This document shows positions 1 through 35,404 of a stretch of 36,135 nt of DNA, piece by piece. Position numbers and translations under genes: made by a program. Location of the stretch: IMG/VR virus record IMGVR_UViG_2563366968_000009. One strand, 5' to 3'. The notes beneath the pieces are model-generated. The model saw nothing but the letters and a program-made list of their open reading frames with translations. It did not search any database and had not been told where the DNA came from. Each line of letters begins with the position of its first letter. The first letter of the stretch is position 1. This DNA is from a virus (Duplodnaviria; Heunggongvirae; Uroviricota; Caudoviricetes).

Positions 1-1362
1 ATGTTTAAACCGGAACTCCTTTCCCCGGCGGGAACGCTGAAAAATATGCGTTACGCTTTCGCTTATGGCGCAGATGCTGTTTATGCGGGCCAGCCGCGTT
101 ACTCCCTGCGTGTGCGCAACAACGAATTTAACCACGAAAATCTTCAGCTCGGCATCAATGAAGCCCACGCGCTGGGGAAAAAGTTTTATGTCGTGGTCAA
201 CATTGCACCGCACAACGCCAAGCTGAAAACCTTTATCCGTGACCTGAAACCGGTGGTGGAAATGGGGCCGGATGCGCTGATTATGTCTGATCCAGGGCTG
301 ATTATGCTGGTGCGCGAGCACTTCCCTGAAATGCCGATCCATCTCTCAGTACAGGCTAACGCCGTGAACTGGGCGACGGTGAAATTCTGGCAGCAAATGG
401 GTCTGACCCGCGTGATCCTCTCTCGCGAACTGTCACTGGAAGAGATTGAAGAGATCCGCAATCAGGTGCCAGATATGGAGATCGAAATCTTCGTTCACGG
501 CGCGCTGTGCATGGCCTACTCCGGTCGCTGCCTGCTCTCTGGCTATATCAACAAGCGCGACCCGAACCAGGGCACCTGCACCAACGCCTGCCGCTGGGAG
601 TATAACGTCCAGGAAGGGAAAGAAGATGACGTCGGCAACATCGTACACAAGTACGAACCGATTCCGGTGCAAAACGTTGAACCGACGCTGGGGATCGGCG
701 CACCAACCGACAAAGTGTTTATGATCGAAGAAGCCCAGCGTCCGGGCGAGTATATGACCGCGTTTGAAGATGAGCACGGCACTTACATCATGAACTCGAA
801 AGATCTGCGCGCCATCGCCCATGTTGAACGCCTGACCAAAATGGGCGTGCATTCGCTGAAAATCGAAGGCCGTACCAAATCTTTCTACTATTGCGCACGC
901 ACCGCGCAGGTTTACCGTAAAGCTATCGATGACGCAGCTGCGGGAAAACCATTCGATACCAGCCTGCTGGAAACCCTGGAAGGTCTGGCGCATCGTGGCT
1001 ATACCGAAGGTTTCCTGCGTCGTCATACTCACGACGATTATCAGAACTACGAATACGGTTATTCAGTTTCTGACCGCCAGCAGTTTGTTGGTGAGTTTAC
1101 CAGTGAGCGCAAGGGCGACCTCGCGGCGGTAGCGGTGAAAAATAAATTCTCCGTTGGCGACAGCCTTGAGCTGATGACGCCGCAAGGGAACATTAACTTT
1201 ACCCTTGAGCACATGGAAAACGCCAAAGGCGAAGCAATGCCGGTCGCACCGGGCGATGGTTATACTGTGTGGATCCCGGTGCCGCAGGATCTTGAGCTAA
1301 ATTACGCGCTGCTGATGCGTAATTTCTCCGGGGAAACCACGCGTAACCCCCACGGTAAGTGA
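1..1362 (+). CDS. yegQ: U32-family peptidase YegQ (tRNA hydroxylation protein TrhP), complete 453 aa
   Basis: Full-length ORF starting at ATG at position 1; protein recognised from memory as E. coli YegQ (U32 peptidase family). Located immediately left of the sRNA and prophage att site, as in the E. coli yegQ-ogrK locus. Confidence 0.9.
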   Translation: MFKPELLSPAGTLKNMRYAFAYGADAVYAGQPRYSLRVRNNEFNHENLQLGINEAHALGKKFYVVVNIAPHNAKLKTFIRDLKPVVEMGPDALIMSDPGLIMLVREHFPEMPIHLSVQANAVNWATVKFWQQMGLTRVILSRELSLEEIEEIRNQVPDMEIEIFVHGALCMAYSGRCLLSGYINKRDPNQGTCTNACRWEYNVQEGKEDDVGNIVHKYEPIPVQNVEPTLGIGAPTDKVFMIEEAQRPGEYMTAFEDEHGTYIMNSKDLRAIAHVERLTKMGVHSLKIEGRTKSFYYCARTAQVYRKAIDDAAAGKPFDTSLLETLEGLAHRGYTEGFLRRHTHDDYQNYEYGYSVSDRQQFVGEFTSERKGDLAAVAVKNKFSVGDSLELMTPQGNINFTLEHMENAKGEAMPVAPGDGYTVWIPVPQDLELNYALLMRNFSGETTRNPHGK

Positions 1363-3591: not shown

Positions 3592-6039
3592 TTAACCGTC
3601 ATGCATCATGCTGGCACGGGCGCGCGCACGTTTATCCCGCTCGTATTTTTCGAGCGCATCCTGTAACTGGCGGTCAAGCTGTGTCCCCGGCGCAGTACCA
3701 CCCGTCAGGCTGATGTGATATTCGTTTTTACTCTGGTCCACATAAGAGCGGCCAGCCGGTGCCGTAACCGGCTGATAAGCCTGATAACCTGCATAAGAGC
3801 TGGTCGCCGGAATATAACCACCGGTGCCATACGTGGCGGCATGAGTTCTGGCGGCTGTCTGGTCAAGTGTGTCTGACTCTTTGTTGATGAACCCGAGCTT
3901 TTCCAGTACCCAGTCAATGCCGCTGCGTAATTTGTTGAACGCATTAAGCGGCAGCATCAGCGCGTCAGCCAGTGCCTGCCCGAACATGACGCCCGTGTCA
4001 CGGCAACGGTTCAGGGTGTCCTGGGTGGCTTTGACCGGGGCAATCAGGTTTTTAAACCACTGCCACGCAGCCTGTAACTTTTCACCCAGCCAGTCAAACA
4101 CCGGCTTAAGTGGCGTGAACAGTTCTCCCACCGGCGCAAATGCCGCTTTCAGCCCTTCCACCACACCGCCAAAGAATGCGCTGACAGGCTCCCAGTATTT
4201 ACGGATAAGTAACGCTCCGGCGACAATGGCGGCCACCACGGCCACTACCGGCCAGCTAATCGCCCCGATGGCCGTCATAACGGCACTGCCAACCGTCGTG
4301 AAAATTGCCCCCATTGCGCCTGCTGCAGCAATGATGGCATTGATGCCGGTGATAACCGGCCAGGCTACAAGACCAATGGCACCGATGATGCCAGTAAGCG
4401 CCAGTGCGCCACCGGCAATGAGGCCGATGGTTGACGCCAGTGATTTGTTTTTCTGGATCCAGCCGTCGAGTTTTAACACATACTTTGTGGCCGTCTGCGT
4501 GAGCTTACGCAGTGCGCCTTCCTGCTGGTCAAACAGGTCAGTCCCCACCGCCTCATAAGCGGACTGAAACTCTTTAAAGTCACCGCCGAGGTTGTCCTGC
4601 ATGATATTTACCAGCTCGGCGGTCTTCCCGTCTGAGGCTTTAAACGCAGCGGTCAGTTTGTCCAGCTTTCCGGTTGAGGCGGCAGTCATCAGCACGGCGG
4701 CGGCTGAGCTGGCCTCCTCCCCGAAAATAGTTTTCATGTATTCAGCCTGCTGGGCAGTACCGAGCCGGTTTTTCTCAAAACTGGCCTGCATTTCTTTCAG
4801 AATGGTAAATATTGGCCGGGTGTTTCCCTTGCTGTCTGAGGTTTTCACTCCAAGCTCTTTGAGTGCATCCCATGCTTTTCCCGTCGGTGCCTGCAGGCGG
4901 CTTAACACGGCACGGCTTCCCGTCCCCGCCATTGAGCCTGTGATTTTTGCATCATGCAGCGCCCCGACCATTGCGGCGGTTTCTTCAATGCTGACACCGG
5001 CATTTTTTGCCACAGGTGCGGCATAGGTCAGCGCATCGCTCATGCCGTCAAAATCGGCGGCGGTTTTGTTCATCGTCATGGAGAGAACATCCCCGATATG
5101 AGCGACCTTATCGTTTGAAAGCTGAAAGGCGGATTTCATCCCCATCAGCAGGGCGGCGTTTTCTTCCATCGTGCGGCGGTTCGCCAGCGCCATATTCAGC
5201 GTGACCGGCGTTGCCGCCTGAATGGCATCAACATCCCCACCCGCTTTCGCGATGATTATCTGTGCACCGGCCGCATCATCCGCCGAGGCGGCGGTATTGT
5301 CGCCGAGCTGGCGCGCCTGTTTGCGTAGTGCGGTCATTTCGGCGGAGTCTTTTGCCACTCCGAGCACGGCCTGCAATTCTGAGTTTTTCTGCGCAAACTC
5401 ATAACCGGGCATCAGCAACTTAACTCCGGCCATCGTTCCCGCCGCCGCAATCCCCACACCGGCAGCGCCCACTGAGGCCATATTTCCGGCCAGTTCCTTT
5501 CCGGCCTGATAACGCTGTTTTACTGCATTAAGTTTTGCCTGTTGCGCACTGACACGCGCCAGCGCGTCACGCTGCCGGTTAAGCTGTGCGGTGGTTTCAC
5601 TGATACGGTTTTTCAGTCCCTGCTCATCATGTGCAAGATTGCGGGTATTAATTCCCACAGCGGCCAGTTCCCGCTGCTGGCGCTTAACGGAATCCGTCAG
5701 GCGGTTATATTTCGCCTGTAAGTCCTCCGCCGCACGCTTTGCGGATTCCAGCACTTTCGCCTGAGCACGGGTCGGACGTTCAGTGTTTTTAAACTGTGTG
5801 GCAAGTGCTTCGGCTTCCTGCCGTGCCTTTTCAAGTGCATGACCAGTCACGGCAAGCTGTGCGCTGGTCTTGCGAAATCCCTCAATACGGGATGCGTGAC
5901 CGTTCAGCTCGCGCAGTGATTTTTGTGTTTCCCGGATATCCCCCGACAGCGACTTACTCGCTGTGCGGATGGATTTAAACGGGCGGGATGCCTGGTCAAC
6001 AGCCCTGAGCAATACCTGTAATTTTACATTGTTACTCAT
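3592..6039 (-). CDS. T: Tail tape measure protein gpT (815 aa)
   Basis: Long Ala/Gly-rich, coiled-coil-rich protein with a hydrophobic central segment; 815 aa as in P2 gpT; follows E/E'. Confidence 0.9.
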   Translation of the reverse strand: MSNNVKLQVLLRAVDQASRPFKSIRTASKSLSGDIRETQKSLRELNGHASRIEGFRKTSAQLAVTGHALEKARQEAEALATQFKNTERPTRAQAKVLESAKRAAEDLQAKYNRLTDSVKRQQRELAAVGINTRNLAHDEQGLKNRISETTAQLNRQRDALARVSAQQAKLNAVKQRYQAGKELAGNMASVGAAGVGIAAAGTMAGVKLLMPGYEFAQKNSELQAVLGVAKDSAEMTALRKQARQLGDNTAASADDAAGAQIIIAKAGGDVDAIQAATPVTLNMALANRRTMEENAALLMGMKSAFQLSNDKVAHIGDVLSMTMNKTAADFDGMSDALTYAAPVAKNAGVSIEETAAMVGALHDAKITGSMAGTGSRAVLSRLQAPTGKAWDALKELGVKTSDSKGNTRPIFTILKEMQASFEKNRLGTAQQAEYMKTIFGEEASSAAAVLMTAASTGKLDKLTAAFKASDGKTAELVNIMQDNLGGDFKEFQSAYEAVGTDLFDQQEGALRKLTQTATKYVLKLDGWIQKNKSLASTIGLIAGGALALTGIIGAIGLVAWPVITGINAIIAAAGAMGAIFTTVGSAVMTAIGAISWPVVAVVAAIVAGALLIRKYWEPVSAFFGGVVEGLKAAFAPVGELFTPLKPVFDWLGEKLQAAWQWFKNLIAPVKATQDTLNRCRDTGVMFGQALADALMLPLNAFNKLRSGIDWVLEKLGFINKESDTLDQTAARTHAATYGTGGYIPATSSYAGYQAYQPVTAPAGRSYVDQSKNEYHISLTGGTAPGTQLDRQLQDALEKYERDKRARARASMMHDG

Positions 6040-6459
6040 TCGTGTTTCCGCTTCGCCGGAGCGCCTTTTCGCGCCATGTGATGAGTTCGGTCAGGCTCAT
6101 GGGATACAGTTCTGATGGCGGCCAGTGAAATATCACTGCCACATCCGCCATCAGGTCATCGACCGAGAGATTTTTCGGAAACGTTACTGCACCGAGTTCG
6201 GCGACAAAAAACCGACCACCTTACCGGCCAGCGCCACAAGGTCAGGCAGCTCCAGCGCGGCGACCTCCTGCTCAGTCAGCATCGGTGCCGTCATGCGCGG
6301 CAGCACTTTAATCAGTGCATCGACTTCGGAGTTTGCGACCGCAGCCAGACTGACACCGCGCAGCGTCCCGGCATTGGGTTTCATCAGCGTGACCTGTTCG
6401 ATAACCTGCTCACCACGCTTGACCGGATTGTCCAGGGTAATCACATTTTCTTTGTTCAT
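6032..6459 (-). CDS. E+E': gpE+E' fusion produced by programmed -1 ribosomal frameshift (142 aa predicted)
   Basis: Hand translation: mRNA reads ...GGT TTT TTG TCG...; after a -1 slip at T.TTT.TTG the reading frame continues for 57 codons to a TAA at 6032..6034, overlapping the T start codon. Total of 85 + 57 = 142 aa equals the P2 E+E' length. Confidence 0.75.
6184..6459 (-). CDS. E: Tail assembly chaperone gpE (91 aa)
   Basis: 91-aa ORF immediately upstream of T, as in P2; contains a slippery TTTTTTG 19 nt before its stop codon. Confidence 0.85.
   Translation of the reverse strand: MNKENVITLDNPVKRGEQVIEQVTLMKPNAGTLRGVSLAAVANSEVDALIKVLPRMTAPMLTEQEVAALELPDLVALAGKVVGFLSPNSVQ
6205..6211 (-). 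promoter_or_regulatory. Slippery heptamer TTTTTTG (on minus strand) for the E/E' -1 frameshift
   Basis: Plus-strand CAAAAAA at 6205..6211 gives TTTTTTG on the coding strand, in the frame T.TTT.TTG relative to E. Confidence 0.7.
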
Positions 6460-6515
6460 GGTTTTCTCACTTCTGAATCAGGGTTAACCGGTCAGCCAGG
6501 CTGACCGGATGAAAA

Positions 6516-7034
6516 TCACAGGCCGATATTGCGGCGGTGTTGCTCCAGCCGGTCGACGCCGTTCACCTTCTCAATCATGTTGATGGTGTCAATTTCGACC
6601 AGCTCCTTACCGTCCATCGTCAGCCGGAAATAGGTGCAGACCACGGAGATTTTCGACTCGGTGTCTTCTCCCTGTTTACCCTCGCCGGTGTCGATTTCTT
6701 TCTGACGGCCACGCATGACCACTTCGACGGCCACCGTTTCGCCGGTATCGTCACGCTGGTAAGAGCCTGCAAAACGAATCGGCACGGCATCCACACCGGT
6801 TGCGGCGTAAAGTTCCCAGATAACCGAATCCGGGAAGCCCCCGAGCGACCACTCCATTGACAGCGCATCGTCATCAAGGCCGAGGTCTACCGGTGCGCTG
6901 CCGTTCATCCCCGCACCGCGATAGTTTTCGAGCTTACGGGTCAGTTTTGGCAGCGTGACGGACTTCGCGACGCCCTGATAGCTGTAGCCGTTCAGAAAGA
7001 CGTTCATTAACTTGAGTTTGCGCGGCATTGCCAT
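6516..7034 (-). CDS. FII: Tail tube protein gpFII (172 aa)
   Basis: Length and synteny match P2 FII. Confidence 0.85.
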   Translation of the reverse strand: MAMPRKLKLMNVFLNGYSYQGVAKSVTLPKLTRKLENYRGAGMNGSAPVDLGLDDDALSMEWSLGGFPDSVIWELYAATGVDAVPIRFAGSYQRDDTGETVAVEVVMRGRQKEIDTGEGKQGEDTESKISVVCTYFRLTMDGKELVEIDTINMIEKVNGVDRLEQHRRNIGL

Positions 7035-8448: not shown

Positions 8449-9498
8449 TTAACTACATGAATCAATGATGTTTTTCACAAGCTTATTTATTTCAGATTCA
8501 TTAGTGCCAAATTCACCCGCTTTAAAATTAATACCTCGCGCTGCAAGATTTCTTTTTATTTTACTTACTTCACTCAGCATAAAGTCATAATTTAACGTTT
8601 TTTCTTTAATGCCCTTTGAATATATTACAGGGAAGGCTTTCATTAATGCCGCATATCCTGTGAGTTTACTTAAATAATATTCCCTTGGTGTATTCCACTC
8701 AACTGGATAGACATTGCTAATAGCATTAAAATAATTCAATATTATTTTTTGAATTACAGCGTCATTCTCTTCGATAAAATAATCGCGGAATATACACTGA
8801 TTATTTGGCGTTAATGGCAGATTCATTTTTAACATTCTTGCATCATCATCAGGTTTTTTTGAAATATGTTGGATAAGATATTTAATGAAAGTGCTTTGTG
8901 ATAATGATGCATTATCTTGGTTTATTTCCTTTTTCCCAAGCATTTTTAGCTTTTTATAAAAAGGGGAATCAGGATTACTGTTTATTCCTCTCGCGATTTC
9001 GTGGCATGTTTTTTGTGGACTCCTGCGTTCTGCAAGCGAAAATAAATCATATACAATTGATGGATTTACACGAGTTTGTTTACTATTAATAATTGAGAAA
9101 ACATAGGCTTTTTCTTCATCAGTAAGATCAAACATTAAAACAACAGGTAGTTCAAAAAGTTTAGCATTAGAGGAATTTTTAATTCCCCATAATCTGTGTT
9201 GACCATCGATAACATCACCTATAACCACTTCAGACTCAAAGTAAAAATAGGTATCATCCATTTTTAAATTGGATGAATCATCGACGGAAATTATGATCGG
9301 CGTTGGAAAAGTCGCATCCGGCTCACTAGTGTACTTTGCGATTTCTGAAACTCTTGATGATGAAATATCCCTTTGCACACCAAATTCGAAATCTCTGCGA
9401 CGATCAACTCTAACTATATCGAGCAAGTCAATGGCTCTTATTGATGTTAAATAGAAAGTACCGATTGGTTGATTAACTTCAATATATTTCAACTTCAT
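8449..9498 (-). CDS. DGQHR-motif protein (DndB-like, predicted ParB/Srx-fold), 349 aa; cargo gene 2
   Basis: Motif VIDGQHRLWG at residues 96-105 plus an N-terminal Q-R dipeptide (VQRD, residues 41-44), as in DndB-type proteins. AAGGAG Shine-Dalgarno 7 nt upstream; start ATG overlaps the stop of the upstream membrane gene (ATGA). Visibly AT-rich compared with flanking tail genes. Confidence 0.7.
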   Translation of the reverse strand: MKLKYIEVNQPIGTFYLTSIRAIDLLDIVRVDRRRDFEFGVQRDISSSRVSEIAKYTSEPDATFPTPIIISVDDSSNLKMDDTYFYFESEVVIGDVIDGQHRLWGIKNSSNAKLFELPVVLMFDLTDEEKAYVFSIINSKQTRVNPSIVYDLFSLAERRSPQKTCHEIARGINSNPDSPFYKKLKMLGKKEINQDNASLSQSTFIKYLIQHISKKPDDDARMLKMNLPLTPNNQCIFRDYFIEENDAVIQKIILNYFNAISNVYPVEWNTPREYYLSKLTGYAALMKAFPVIYSKGIKEKTLNYDFMLSEVSKIKRNLAARGINFKAGEFGTNESEINKLVKNIIDSCS

Positions 9499-10094
9499 AT
9501 CATAACTCCTTTACCATCATCAGTTACTTCATTGGTTGCCATTGTCTGATCTATAACTATTGCATCTTCTTTTTCTATATAACTTTCATCATTTATATCT
9601 GTATGTGCAGTAGCGTTAAGTTTTAATACGCCAAATGTATAGCATACTAAGACTATAGAAATAACATAAATTATAGGTTGAGTTAAACCGAATGTTAAAT
9701 CATTAGAATTTGGTAGGATTAAATCCTTTGATTGCGTAGCAGCGTATATTATTCCTGATAATTGTAATAAAATAATCAATAATATTATTGATATGATTTT
9801 TATTGTTTTAAATTCAAGTTTTGAACTAAAAAAAGTTACAAACATAGGCCCAAGGGCAGAGGCTATTAATGCAATGGAAAATGTGTAAAAACTTCCTGAC
9901 GAACCTTCTATGTAAATAGATTGATCTAGTGGTATTGAATGTGAATAATATCTTATGATTATATTTGCAATAATCCCCATTTGCCCACAAACAACTGTAA
10001 AAACGATCCAAATAAAAAACTCTCTTTTGTTTTTTCTTATCGCATCGAATGGATAGGAAAGGGATTTCTTTAATATTTGCCAGTCTTTACTCAT
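9495..10094 (-). CDS. Predicted 4-TM inner-membrane protein with acidic C-terminal tail (about 199 aa); cargo gene 1
   Basis: Four hydrophobic segments (approx residues 29-50, 72-92, 101-122, 142-160 of the track ORF). The track ORF begins at a GTG (10103); I prefer the ATG at 10094 (MSKDWQ...). AT-rich; first gene of a coupled two-gene operon. Confidence 0.6.
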   Translation of the reverse strand: MSKDWQILKKSLSYPFDAIRKNKREFFIWIVFTVVCGQMGIIANIIIRYYSHSIPLDQSIYIEGSSGSFYTFSIALIASALGPMFVTFFSSKLEFKTIKIISIILLIILLQLSGIIYAATQSKDLILPNSNDLTFGLTQPIIYVISIVLVCYTFGVLKLNATAHTDINDESYIEKEDAIVIDQTMATNEVTDDGKGVMI

Positions 10095-10498
10095 GTTATG
10101 CACTCTTTATTTAAACTTATCAACAATATGTAACTATCAATTAATAACCGTTTACTCTTTTCAAATAATAAAATTATAATCATCAAAAAAATCGACATTA
10201 TAATTAGACAACATTTTTAACACTAAGTGATACCTGACTCATGTCTCCAGACCCTAAAACCGCTTGCATAATTTAGAATGATAATACTACCTTATAGTAG
10301 GCTTGTGAACTTATATAGCATGAGTCAAGTAATTAATAAATCACTTATTTCGTTTTTTTTGCATTTGGTCGCTGTGATTTTTTCATAAACAAACTTACAA
10401 TGATGTCAGCAATGTCTGCTCTTGGCACAGAGCGGACTGTCAGATTAGTTTTTACTCTGTGCCATAGATGTATAAACTCACATCAGAGCTTATACAAT

Positions 10499-25707: not shown

Positions 25708-27540
25708 TCAAACAGAGCCCTGTTCAAATACAGTATCAAAATATGGTAGGAGAGGATAAGCACACAGAAAGAAAATCAGGATGCATGCATATGTCGTTGT
25801 TTCATCGTAACAAGCATTAGTATATAAATTACCATGTGCTAATTTATGTCTTAAGGTTGCCCCACTCTTTCTATTAAAAAGAACATCGATAGTTAAAACA
25901 AGATTCTTAGAAAAGATACTTTCCAAATCATCTCTGCATTTATCTAGAAGCTGAGAAATACTTGTTGACTCCTCTAATCCCTTATCCAAATATCTAGTAG
26001 CATCCTTTCCACTAAGCTCATAATAATAACGAACCATACCTTCCATTTGTGGTATTAAAAGATAAGCTGCACTGATGTAATCTCCCTGCCATAATTTGTA
26101 AAAGCCCAAATTAAAAATCTCCCTAAACTCCGGCTTGACAATTGGACTAGTTGTAACTAATTTAACGAATGTTGACAACGTCAAGCCATGTTCTTGAGAA
26201 AGTACATAGCGAGCAGGTTCAAAGACACCGTTTACAAAAATCTTATGAGTAATCTCGAAATTTCTTAGATATTGATCAATAACAACATCATCACTCATAT
26301 CTTTTTTATTATCCAACGGCGGGATTGTATATACCTTACGCCCACTCTCATCATTAATTTCTGTTCCAACAAAACTAGAGAATAAACTTTTTTCTGATAA
26401 TCTTAAAACTTGCTCCCTCATGCTTTCAATATTTTCAATCGGTGTTTCACGCATTAAAACTTTGAATATATCGGGCAAAGAACGCCCCGTCAGTTTTTTT
26501 TCACTTTCAGCAACCAAGTCACTAATATCAATAGAATGGCTTAAAGTGACATATTCACTCCTTACTTCTTCTCTCAAATTAGCAAGTTGTTCCTTTAAAT
26601 CTTCTATCTGTTGGCTATCACCACCGTACTGTCTTAATTCAGAGATAGCTGTTCTTAACCAAGAGATCTTACCCATATTATCAGGTCGATCTGTTGCAAC
26701 TTTAATAGTAATATTTGCAGATGCCAGTTTACATCTCTTGGCACGTTCATACTCACCATTTTTTTCATAAATAACTGCACTTGTCATATAAAGTGATTTT
26801 ACAGCATCATAATATTTTTTATCTTTATGCTGCTCAGCCATCTTCTCAGCATTTTCCGCATACTGCAGATTATACCCATCAAAATCACGCACCATAAACC
26901 AAGTCAAATTATTGAAACCTTCAAAGATTAATCTTTCATTTTGAATACTATAAAGAGAATGAATGGCATTTTTAATCGCCATGTTTCCTTCTGATTTTCT
27001 AGGGTAGACCATTTTATTAATGTGCAAAGCCCTAGCAATATAATCACGAGCAAAAATAAAGCAATTTAAATCACTTTCATCCATGCTTTCGTTTTTTATT
27101 ATTAGTTTTTCAATTGCTATATTTAGCATTTCAGCATAGGAATCAATTGCTTTAATTGCCACGTCTTTATTTTTCCGGTTATTACACCAAACAACATCAT
27201 ATATTCTTGATAACAAAAATGGATTGGTTATTTTTTGAGAAACATATAAAAGACAGTCATTCACCTGCTCATCAAAATCTTCAGGCAATATTGATCTTTT
27301 ATTACCCCAAATCATTTGGGGTTCAAATGATGGAGTGTTGTTAACAACTTGCAAATTGAAACTATATAGCATACCAAAAAGAGATGCTAATTTTTTCTCT
27401 TTGGGGTTTCCTGATGATTCAGCAATCCCATCCAGATATTTTTTTATTTTATGTGCATGAAATGTAACTGGTATATGCATAAAAACACTATAATCTAGTG
27501 TTTCAAGCTCTTCCCTTGTAAGAACAAAGATATCATTCAT
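25708..27540 (-). CDS. Large standalone protein (about 610 aa) with C-terminal HEPN-like R-x4-H motif; cargo at the tin/old position
   Basis: C-terminal ...NRKSGATLRHKLAHGNLY... contains R-x4-H. Start placed at the ATG at 27540 (MNDIFVLTREE...) with AAGGTG 6 nt upstream; the track ORF starts at an upstream TTG (27642). Visibly AT-rich; occupies the slot between cos and gene A. Confidence 0.6.
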   Translation of the reverse strand: MNDIFVLTREELETLDYSVFMHIPVTFHAHKIKKYLDGIAESSGNPKEKKLASLFGMLYSFNLQVVNNTPSFEPQMIWGNKRSILPEDFDEQVNDCLLYVSQKITNPFLLSRIYDVVWCNNRKNKDVAIKAIDSYAEMLNIAIEKLIIKNESMDESDLNCFIFARDYIARALHINKMVYPRKSEGNMAIKNAIHSLYSIQNERLIFEGFNNLTWFMVRDFDGYNLQYAENAEKMAEQHKDKKYYDAVKSLYMTSAVIYEKNGEYERAKRCKLASANITIKVATDRPDNMGKISWLRTAISELRQYGGDSQQIEDLKEQLANLREEVRSEYVTLSHSIDISDLVAESEKKLTGRSLPDIFKVLMRETPIENIESMREQVLRLSEKSLFSSFVGTEINDESGRKVYTIPPLDNKKDMSDDVVIDQYLRNFEITHKIFVNGVFEPARYVLSQEHGLTLSTFVKLVTTSPIVKPEFREIFNLGFYKLWQGDYISAAYLLIPQMEGMVRYYYELSGKDATRYLDKGLEESTSISQLLDKCRDDLESIFSKNLVLTIDVLFNRKSGATLRHKLAHGNLYTNACYDETTTYACILIFFLCAYPLLPYFDTVFEQGSV

Positions 27541-27656
27541 CGTTTTCACCTTTTTCAGTATAAATTTGCACACATTATTAGCAACATAATTATCAATAGT
27601 TAACACATGCAGATAAACAGCAATTTTACTATTATGCAACAAATTAAATCAGATGT

Positions 27657-34519: not shown

Positions 34520-35404
34520 ATGGCAGAATTTCCCGCCAGCTTACTGATTCTTAATGGCAAAAGTACTGACAATTTACCATTGCGCGAAGCAATTATGCTG
34601 TTGCGTGAGGAAGGAATGACGATCCATGTGCGGGTCACCTGGGAGAAAGGCGATGCCGCACGATATGTAGAGGAGGCCCGGAAGTTGGGCGTCGCAACGG
34701 TGATTGCCGGTGGTGGCGATGGCACCATTAATGAAGTTTCTACGGCGTTGATTCAGTGTGAGGGGGATGACATACCCGCGCTAGGAATTTTGCCATTAGG
34801 AACCGCCAATGATTTTGCCACCAGTGTAAGGATTCCTGAGGCACTGGATAAGGCGCTGAAACTGGCAATTGCCGGTGACGCCATTGCGATAGATATGGCG
34901 CAGGTCAACAAACAAACCTGTTTTATTAATATGGCGACAGGCGGATTTGGGACGCGTATTACCACAGAAACGCCGGAAAAATTAAAAGCCGCGCTGGGTG
35001 GCGTCTCTTACATCATTCATGGCTTAATGCGCATGGATACTCTGCAACCGGACCGTTGTGAGATCCGCGGTGAAAACTTTCACTGGCAAGGTGACGCCCT
35101 GGTCATTGGTATTGGTAACGGGCGTCAGGCCGGTGGCGGTCAGCAATTGTGCCCGAACGCGTTAATTAACGATGGCTTGCTGCAACTGCGCATTTTTACC
35201 GGCGATGAAATTCTTCCGGCTCTCGTATCAACATTAAAATCTGACGAAGATAACCCGAATATTATCGAAGGCGCTTCGTCGTGGTTTGATATACAAGCCC
35301 CACACGAAATCACTTTTAATCTTGATGGCGAACCGTTGAGCGGACAAAATTTTCATATTGAAATACTTCCGGCGGCGTTGCGGGTGATGCTGCCAACTTA
35401 CTGA
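34520..35404 (+). CDS. yegS: Lipid kinase YegS, C-terminally altered by IS1 insertion (294 aa ORF)
   Basis: [45 protein letters not shown]... matches E. coli YegS (DAGK-family GGDG motif). The reading frame runs into IS1 at 35383 and ends ...[13 protein letters not shown], where I recall the native protein continuing ...RCRLPPDCPLLR. Confidence 0.85.

Follow-up and report, generated by a model that had tools for sequence, protein, structure and literature searches.

The E/E' −1 frameshift site of a P2-type Escherichia coli prophage and a candidate stimulator upstream of its slippery heptamer

Genes and reading frames at the E/E' locus

The window, a stretch of 36,135 nucleotides of viral DNA (Caudoviricetes, IMG/VR record IMGVR_UViG_2563366968_000009), carries on its minus strand three tail genes in the order tail tube (FII), E/E', and tape measure (T). 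The ORF of FII (6516..7034), a gene annotated in RefSeq E. coli, P2, and L-413C as encoding the major tail tube protein, is located directly upstream of gene E. The latter (6184..6459) starts with ATG, ends with TAA at 6186..6184, and encodes the zero-frame tail assembly chaperone of 91 aa. Gene T (3592..6039), which starts with ATG at 6039..6037, encodes the tail tape measure protein of 815 aa.

The heptamer T_TTT_TTG (6205..6211), a slip site for −1 tandem tRNA movement, lies near the 3' end of E, where it is read within the codons GGT TTT TTG. Its first base falls on codon position 3, giving the correct X_XXY_YYZ phase, and no other in-frame heptamer of this form is present within E. An earlier note on this DNA had placed the heptamer 19 nt before the E stop; the position stands, but the true gap is 18 nt, corresponding to the six codons SPNSVQ, and 19 results only if the final base of the heptamer and the initial base of the stop are taken as the limits of the count. 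From position 240 of the 276 in the E ORF, 9 nt upstream of the heptamer, the −1 frame is open. Reading in this frame from base 6205, which is used twice, yields VAELGAVTFPKNLSVDDLMADVAVIFHWPPSELYPMSLTELITWREKALRRSGNTNE, comprising 57 sense codons, followed by TAA at 6034..6032, with the E' segment as a whole spanning 6032..6205. Joined to the first 85 codons of E, this segment gives the E+E' fusion of 142 aa (6032..6459; join 6459..6205 + 6205..6032). Both the 57-codon extension and the length of the fusion had been predicted correctly by the earlier note, and the interval that it had assigned to an E/E' −1 frameshift, 6032-6459, proved to be the exact coding span of E+E'. The terminal TAA, on the other hand, had been described as overlapping the start codon of T; the ORFs do overlap, by 8 nt, but the TAA is found 2 nt after the ATG of T and is not in contact with it (ATGAGTAA).

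The product of E matches the Pfam family PF10109 (Phage_TAC_7), a family of tail assembly chaperones, with E = 2.6e-12, as well as PHROG 103 (tail protein), and the −1 extension matches PF06528 (Phage_P2_GpE) with E = 2.1e-22. The Phage_TAC_7 match and the order FII-E/E'-T support the earlier proposal that the locus has a tail-assembly-chaperone architecture resembling lambda G/GT. A search of NCBIfam with the fusion returned no family match, and among solved structures there was no meaningful match (best E = 0.14) and none of a relative.

Similarity to P2 and conservation in relatives

The region is ~98.7% identical to the DNA of phage P2, and 98-99% identical to that of many Peduovirus genomes. 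The P2 record (NC_001895) builds E+E' from two joined parts and marks the corresponding base as a 'site of -1 translational frameshift'; the record of L-413C describes E+E' by the identical join. Compared with gpE/gpE+E' of P2 (FETUD tail operon; Christie et al. 2002, J Bacteriol 184:6522), the genes, the heptamer, the position of the join, and the products of 91 and 142 aa are all alike, and the T gene of P2 has the identical 8-nt overlap with E'. Alignment of the predicted fusion with P2 gpE+E', which had been suggested as a check, shows 99% identity; the only difference is at residue 29 of E, which is N here and S in P2, and the E' part is identical in amino acid sequence. At the nucleotide level, ~10 differences, the majority synonymous, are present over 451 aligned columns; the stop codon of E is TAA here and TGA in P2, a change that is synonymous in the E' frame. 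The element differs from P2 in being an E. coli prophage, inserted between yegQ and yegS, and in having other cargo genes. The window almost certainly holds a P2-type (Peduovirus) prophage in an E. coli chromosome, whose late tail operon (FI, FII, E, T, U, D) includes a classical E/E' −1 recoding site.

Conservation of the site was followed in a divergent sample of 16 Peduoviridae, consisting of the locus in the window and those of 15 related phages, with identity of E down to ~30%, and in 80 enterobacterial prophage loci from different species, found via an E' peptide pattern; a 5-sequence alignment served as the query of a wide locus scan. All 16 Peduoviridae carry, close to the 3' end of E, an X_XXY_YYZ heptamer that is in frame, together with a −1 ORF that encodes the motif DDLMADIAVIFHWPPSE...WREKA..RSG and extends to the start of the tape measure gene, and the fusion from the window could be aligned with the fusions of the 15 relatives. 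The heptamer is T_TTT_TTG in 11 of the 16 (the window and 10 relatives), with T_TTT_TTT, A_AAT_TTT, G_GGA_AAG, T_TTT_TTC, and C_CCT_TTC found in the remaining ones. Among the enterobacterial prophages, E' is in the −1 frame in 79 of 80, and T_TTT_TTG or T_TTT_TTA is likewise present in 79 of 80. The flanks of these loci vary, with 49 distinct contexts in the 18 nt downstream. The −1 arrangement with a slippery heptamer is almost universal in both sets. Third-position diversity at the three codons of the heptamer is 0.00, 0.00, and 0.07 in 82 unique relatives, compared to a mean of 0.49 for E, making these codons the least variable synonymous sites of the gene.

Recoding mechanism and alternative readings

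Experiments from 2002 demonstrated the frameshift of P2 E/E', which ranks among the standard examples of frameshifting conserved in tail chaperones. According to the passages of PMC3091744 that cite Christie 2002 and Xu 2004, P2 produces E (91 aa) and E+E' (142 aa) via a −1 shift at TTTTTTG; as cited there and in PMC3931495, the frameshift product was revealed by P2 genetics and the analysis of fusion proteins (Christie 2002). The citing passages of these two papers and of PMC5009743 also present as experimental results of Christie 2002 the origin of the 142-aa fusion by −1 ribosomal frameshifting and the requirement for both products in tail assembly. The P2-type E/E' frameshift is real, strongly conserved, and already described, and its occurrence in the window is an ordinary finding.

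By the proposed mechanism, the majority of ribosomes would stop at the TAA of E, releasing the 91-aa chaperone gpE. A minority would pause when UUU, paired to tRNA-Phe, occupies the P site and UUG, paired to tRNA-Leu, the A site, after which both tRNAs would slide back by one base onto U_UUU_UUG. Translation would then continue in the −1 frame (GUC GCC GAA...) for 57 more codons, yielding the 142-aa gpE+E' with the junction ...VVGFL/VAELG..., and such tandem slippage on the ribosome would produce the junction peptide VVGFLVAELGAVTFPK. A fixed frequency of the shift would set the ratio of gpE to gpE+E'. None of the observations made on the locus speaks against this mechanism. For P2, that frequency is reportedly about 10%, and E' is said to be essential.

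The closest functional parallel is provided by G/GT of phage lambda (Levin 1993; Xu, Hendrix and Duda 2004, 2013, 2014), where two overlapping ORFs are also located between the genes of the major tail (tube) protein and the tape measure protein. In lambda, as here, an X_XXY_YYZ heptamer located toward the end of the first ORF is the site of a −1 shift that leads to a minor fusion made in a fixed ratio (PMC5009743, PMC3091744). No homology to lambda gpG/gpT was detected, the matches in Pfam at E <= 0.01 being solely PF10109 and PF06528, and the literature also reports no sequence similarity to the lambda G/GT chaperones (PMC3931495). By analogy, then, E/E' works like G/GT with proteins of a different sequence family. 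From the same parallel (PMC5009743) we infer what E and E' bind: the shared E domain would coat the tape measure protein T, the E' domain would recruit the tail tube protein, and the chaperones would be absent from virions. The two systems differ in the type of tail, which is contractile here and non-contractile in lambda. The heptamers differ as well, that of lambda being G_GGA_AAG, unlike the T_TTT_TTG found here.

Annotated genomes present E' in another way. In a RefSeq E. coli genome that is 100% identical to the window over a 701-bp query (E/E' and flanks), PGAP annotates E and, as a distinct ORF starting at an internal ATG (6151..6149), a 39-aa 'GpE family phage tail protein', with no fusion, and many phage records likewise give E' as a stand-alone ORF. 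Gene T is arranged in this genome as it is in the window and in P2. These calls, as well as the start of the PF06528 model at the internal Met, would fit an E' that is an independent small gene expressed with no frameshift. Such a gene is nevertheless very improbable, since on reading the sequence the 20 nt before the internal ATG (aaaaatctctcggtcgatgacctg) contain no Shine-Dalgarno-like motif, and the Met itself is replaced in relatives by Ala (RSA1), Ile (Mannheimia), Glu (AhyVDH1), or Val. Conservation of the −1 frame extends upstream of this residue (V/I-D/E-D-L), and the frame is open back to the in-frame slippery heptamer in 16 of 16 phages and 79 of 80 prophages. An independent E' gene would also not need the strong synonymous constraint on the heptamer, and it conflicts with the frameshift product demonstrated for P2 in the work that the above passages cite. 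The stand-alone call in RefSeq therefore means that automated annotation misses the fusion, bearing out the expectation of the earlier note for standard gene callers; wherever the 39-aa ORF is called in place of the 142-aa fusion, the true essential product would be absent from the protein set. The 701-bp query matches 1,587 of 5,426 complete E. coli genomes, and the practical value of the locus lies in genome annotation, the scientific addition being small.

Ribosomal slippage at the heptamer must also be weighed against events in transcription, where RNA polymerase adding one U in the T6 run would give a G-F-F-V junction and the peptide VVGFFVAELGAVTFPK. The homopolymeric run of six T is present at the site, and runs of A or T can make the polymerase slip, as discussed for A7 and U7 (PMC4066793). 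However, the heptamers G_GGA_AAG, A_AAT_TTT, and C_CCT_TTC of relatives are non-homopolymeric and suit tandem tRNA slippage rather than polymerase stuttering, and the heptamer keeps an invariant phase with respect to the E frame, a property that matters to ribosomes and not to RNA polymerase. Six T are, moreover, fewer than in the runs usually tied to efficient transcriptional slippage, and we hold polymerase slippage at this site to be scarcely credible. A functionless coincidence of the heptamer with an open −1 frame could draw on the abundance of TTTTTTG in the window (23 copies observed, 11.8 expected), but it is refuted by the conservation data, since the −1 frame encodes a Pfam family (E = 2e-22) and is conserved in elements of Enterobacterales, Burkholderia, Ralstonia, Pseudomonas, Aeromonas, Mannheimia, and Zymomonas. 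The phase and position of the heptamer, taken together with this conserved protein, are far beyond what would be expected by chance.

Sequences flanking the slippery heptamer

The 120 nt on the 3' side of the heptamer fold better than shuffled sequences (z = -2.87). The only strong local hairpin of this region is a perfect 10-bp stem formed by CUGAUGGCGG and CCGCCAUCAG (about 6154..6113), which begins 50 nt downstream of the heptamer. This stem was considered as a stimulator of the frameshift and dismissed because of its distance of 50 nt, its location inside the most conserved protein motif (LMAD...WPPSE), and the near-absence of a consensus structure or of covariation in an alignment of 10 relatives, for which RNAalifold gave a consensus of -1.65 kcal/mol and a covariation term above zero. 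A conserved hairpin or pseudoknot 5-9 nt past the heptamer was not found, and no downstream structure has been reported for P2 either (PMC3091744).

On the 5' side, the codons AAG GTG of E include a Shine-Dalgarno-like AGGTG (6217..6221), separated by a 6-nt spacer from the second base of the heptamer, which may be a stimulator of the shift, judging from its conservation and predicted duplex. The duplex of AGGTG with the 3' tail of 16S rRNA has a predicted energy of -14.0 kcal/mol, which ranks in the top 0.15% of the operon's windows, and AGGTG is listed among experimentally stimulatory motifs (PMC4066793). In this respect the site resembles the −1 signals of the E. coli dnaX or IS911 type, in which a Shine-Dalgarno-like stimulator is located upstream; the candidate AGGTG, conserved at synonymous sites, would take the same place here. 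It differs from them in its gap, which falls at the lower end of the 6-17 nt considered in PMC4066793, as well as in having no conserved downstream hairpin or pseudoknot. A literature search for TTTTTTG together with Shine-Dalgarno returned only primer sequences for dnaX and no account of the AGGTG element, the primary P2 paper, which may describe it, being outside that search.

The efficiency of frameshifting in P2 is 2- to 3-fold above that of lambda (PMC5009743). In a systematic study in E. coli, U_UU.U_UU.G does not appear among the most efficient motifs and the tetramer U_UU.G is weakly shifty (PMC4066793), so the heptamer alone may not account for the reported efficiency of P2. We can speculate that the P2-type site is not free of stimulators, and that the Shine-Dalgarno-like xAG GTG, complementary to the 3' tail of 16S rRNA, held at a fixed short distance upstream, and under selection at synonymous sites across Enterobacterales, could explain how a higher efficiency is obtained from an intrinsically mediocre heptamer. 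This proposal is possible rather than probable, and offers a cheap and testable hypothesis on what sets the efficiency of the site. AGGTG is present at the identical gap in 79 of 94 loci, and any Shine-Dalgarno-like motif in 84 of 94, compared to 14% of background positions. In the 82 unique relatives, codon use at the site is AAG 69 : AAA 2, with GTG in 76 of the 82, and the element, as xAG GTG, also occurs in relatives from Ralstonia, Salmonella (Fels-2), Aeromonas, and Pseudomonas.

The E/E′ frameshift site and its counterpart in P2

Gene E (91 aa) is located on the minus strand and extends from the ATG at 6459 to the TAA at 6186..6184. Near its 3′ end, at 6211..6205, it includes the heptamer T_TTT_TTG, read in the zero frame as GGT TTT TTG. 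The first T of the heptamer occupies codon position 3, creating the X_XXY_YYZ phase required for tandem -1 slippage, and this is the sole in-phase heptamer of that type within E. The earlier note had correctly recognized the heptamer ahead of the E stop, although the distance between them is 18 nt (six codons) rather than 19 nt. Translation of the -1 frame from 6205 gives the E′ segment, 57 sense codons (VAELGAVTFPKNLSVDDLMADVAVIFHWPPSELYPMSLTELITWREKALRRSGNTNE) ending with a TAA at 6034..6032, thus reproducing both the 57-codon extension and the 142-aa fusion (85 + 57) previously proposed. The tape measure gene T, on the same strand, starts with the ATG at 6039..6037, so that E′ and T overlap by 8 nt (ATGAGTAA). 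The overlap of the two reading frames therefore stands, whereas the TAA itself, described earlier as overlapping the start codon, is positioned just past the ATG. The -1 frame is open from just 9 nt 5′ of the heptamer, and 37 nt of E′ reach back into E; the same 37-nt extension has been reported for P2 (PMC3931495).

A 701-bp query around the site matched 82 phage records, most of them at 95-99% identity, including Peduovirus P2 isolates, L-413C, and many Escherichia and Yersinia P2-like phages. A 451-nt region is ~99% identical per column to P2 (NC_001895) and to L-413C, both of whose records annotate E plus a two-part E+E′ CDS; the P2 record marks a "site of -1 translational frameshift" whose counterpart in the window is 6205/6204. 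The alignment of the fusion to P2 E+E′, suggested earlier as a check, reveals an identical amino-acid sequence of E′ and a single difference in E (N29 in the window, S29 in P2), and the overlap with T is also 8 nt in P2. Residues 7-85 match Pfam family PF10109 (Phage_TAC_7; tail assembly chaperone proteins E, 41 or 14), the extension matches PF06528 (Phage_P2_GpE, E = 2e-22), and PHROGs assigns both halves of the fusion to tail families. Together with the conserved heptamer and -1 protein discussed below, the P2 match and these families bear out the tail-chaperone frameshift reading. Judged by its sequence, the locus belongs to the P2 gpE/gpE+E′ family, with the homologous E and E′ frames, the in-phase heptamer, and the location between FII and T all present, and frameshifting of this type is already known.

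From a single start, P2 produces E (91 aa) and, through a -1 frameshift at TTTTTTG, E+E′ (142 aa) (PMC3091744, citing Christie et al. 2002 and Xu et al. 2004). In that phage, E′ has no ribosome binding site of its own (PMC3931495), and the efficiency of the shift is 2- to 3-fold above that of lambda G/GT (PMC5009743). The lambda pair works alike, but has no sequence homology to E/E′ of the window. By analogy with it (PMC5009743), the shared E domain would bind the tape measure protein T, the E′ domain would recruit the tail tube protein FII, and both chaperones would be absent from the virion. A search for a solved structure of a relative found none. The work of Christie et al. in 2002 is said to have put the P2 frameshift at ~10% and to have found E′ essential.

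Conservation of the slip site and alternative routes to E′

The bare heptamer is common, with 23 copies of TTTTTTG on both strands of the whole window vs 11.8 expected from shuffles (0 of 100 shuffles reached 23), so the argument for frameshifting stands on phase, position, and conservation. These were compared in 16 loci, namely that of the window and those of 15 increasingly distant Peduoviridae, with relatives comprising P2, L-413C, 186, a Klebsiella phage, a Yersinia enterocolitica phage, ENT90, KL3, RSA1, Fels-2, a Pseudomonas phiCTX-like phage, a Zymomonas element, two Aeromonas phages, E. coli 503458, a Mannheimia phage, and another Klebsiella phage. The identity of E to that of the window drops to ~30% among the 15 relatives. 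All 16 loci have an in-phase X_XXY_YYZ heptamer close to the end of E, as well as a -1 ORF that reaches the tape-measure start and carries the motif V/I-D/E-D-L-M-A-D-I-A-V-I-F-H-W-P-P-S-E...E-L..W-R-E-K-A..R-S-G. The heptamer is T_TTT_TTG in 11 of them and T_TTT_TTT, A_AAT_TTT, G_GGA_AAG, T_TTT_TTC, or C_CCT_TTC in the remaining, more distant phages, and it lies between 6 and 66 nt from the E stop. Conservation thus concerns the combination of a slippery site and a -1 protein rather than one invariant DNA segment.

Scanning a single genome for each bacterial species yielded 377 relatives, the best 80 of which, all from different species, were analysed; these prophage loci were retrieved with an E′ peptide pattern that excluded the heptamer. 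Of the best 80, 79 have E′ in the -1 frame with respect to E, and 79 have the heptamer in its expected place (T_TTT_TTG in 76, T_TTT_TTA in 3); 49 different 18-nt downstream contexts are present among the 80. T_TTT_TTA is found in prophages of Yersinia frederiksenii (L033), Y. alsatica (L037), and Lelliottia nimipressuralis (L080). Diversity at third codon positions has a mean of 0.49 in a set of 82 unique E sequences, falling to the lowest values in the gene at GGT, TTT, and TTG (0.00, 0.00, and 0.07); this is direct evidence that selection acts on the slip site at the nucleotide level.

These conservation data exclude a chance coincidence of a heptamer with an open -1 frame. Access to the -1 frame by transcriptional slippage on the T6 run is unlikely, since non-homopolymeric heptamers occur in relatives and the invariant phase of the heptamer is relevant to ribosomes, not to RNA polymerase. 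It is highly improbable that E′ is an independent small gene starting from an internal ATG at 6151, even though annotation favors that reading: in line with the remark on gene callers in the earlier note, the fusion is overlooked by RefSeq PGAP, which instead starts a 39-aa "GpE family phage tail protein" of its own at this ATG (6032..6151, minus strand; 6450..6569 in the retrieved prophage locus L003), and several phage records likewise annotate a stand-alone E′. However, no SD-like sequence is seen in the 20 nt before ATG 6151, relatives have Ala, Ile, Glu, or Val in place of its Met, conservation of the -1 frame extends 5′ of it, and an independent gene would not need an invariant in-phase heptamer. 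The PF06528 model has 37 positions, the first of which is this same Met, so the family was apparently built from stand-alone ORFs; this suggests that its definition derives from a mis-called ORF, not from the real 57-residue extension.

The sole case among the best 80 loci with E and E′ in the same frame is L018 (Candidatus Symbiopectobacterium sp., NZ_PEHF01000066.1, 701..1117). There, a deletion just 5′ of TTTTTTG joins E and E′ (...MIAIARFFDAEITAG...), so that only a fusion-like product is possible, with no free E. This locus is likely a natural frame-locked mutant in a decaying prophage of a symbiont genome.

Sequences flanking the slip site

In a systematic E. coli study, U_UU.U_UU.G was not among the most efficient motifs and U_UU.G was weakly shifty (PMC4066793); because of this poor ranking, the upstream sequence was examined. 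An SD-like AGGTG, formed by codons AAG GTG, is located at 6221..6217 (minus strand, within 6212..6227), with a 6-nt gap to the second base of the heptamer, which is at the lower limit of the published spacing. In counts that come from phylogenetically related sequences, AGGTG occurs at this gap in 79/94 loci, and any SD-like motif at 6-17 nt in 84/94 (69/79 unique contexts); the background frequency over positions of these loci is 14%. Such a motif is also present in distant lineages, 6 nt away in RSA1, Fels-2, and AhyVDH1 and 9 nt away in the Pseudomonas phage. Conservation of AGGTG extends to synonymous sites. The Lys codon is AAG in 69 cases and AAA in 2, compared with AAA 48 : AAG 32 for another Lys in E and AAA 62 : AAG 27 in the tail genes of the window; where Gln or Glu replaces Lys, xAG is retained, and the Val codon is GTG in 76/82. 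The duplex predicted for the 16 nt 5′ of the heptamer and the 16S 3′ tail (-14.0 kcal/mol) ranks in the top 0.15% of 4,630 windows taken from the coding strand of FI-T; when synonymous codons are resampled, it is in the top 4.5%. AGGTG is thus a reasonable candidate for a frameshift stimulator on sequence grounds. That the element is both functional and undescribed is possible, if somewhat doubtful; it is the only mildly new item at this locus, and of modest interest if true.

No conserved structure was found 3′ of the heptamer by RNAalifold with 10 relatives (-1.65 kcal/mol, positive covariation term), in agreement with the lack of a hairpin in P2 and its Burkholderia relatives (PMC3091744). 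The window has a strong local hairpin (120-nt fold, z = -2.87), whose perfect 10-bp stem (CUGAUGGCGG / CCGCCAUCAG) is at ~6113..6154 (minus strand) within the E′ coding region, beginning 50 nt past the slip site. The stem was rejected as a stimulator, as it coincides with codons of the conserved LMAD...WPPSE motif and has no covariation support in relatives; it is probably a by-product of those conserved codons.

The prophage in its host context

The window is an E. coli chromosomal segment comprising yegQ (1..1362), a complete P2-like prophage, and yegS, which encodes a YegS-type lipid kinase (34520..35404, DAGK_cat + YegS_C); with these host genes at opposite ends, the prophage fills the yegQ-yegS interval. 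In E. coli K-12, presumably just an ogrK/D′ remnant is kept at this site. The 701-bp query over E/E′ and its flanks finds matches in 1,587 of 5,426 complete E. coli genomes.

A low-GC island (~8450..10450, 30% GC vs ~55% GC in the flanks) is positioned between the tail sheath gene FI and a tail-fibre assembly gene, where P2 has Z/fun. Inside it, a DndB/DpdB-like protein of 349 aa and a 202-aa protein are encoded at 8449..10103 on the minus strand. The former matches PF14072 and PADLOC DpdB (1e-16) and includes a DGQHR motif; the latter, whose ORF overlaps that of its partner by 4 nt, appears hydrophobic when its sequence is judged by eye, and a search for a family match returned none. The two are probably an anti-phage cargo pair in a known P2 hotspot. 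A 644-aa protein (25708..27642, minus strand) carries DUF7380 (PF24098, 1.5e-39) and has a PADLOC match to PDC-S39, a candidate defence family (1e-84). Adjacent to it is a 774-aa ORF, taken on size alone to be replication gene A; the site would be the second cargo hotspot of P2, presumably occupied by old/tin in that phage.
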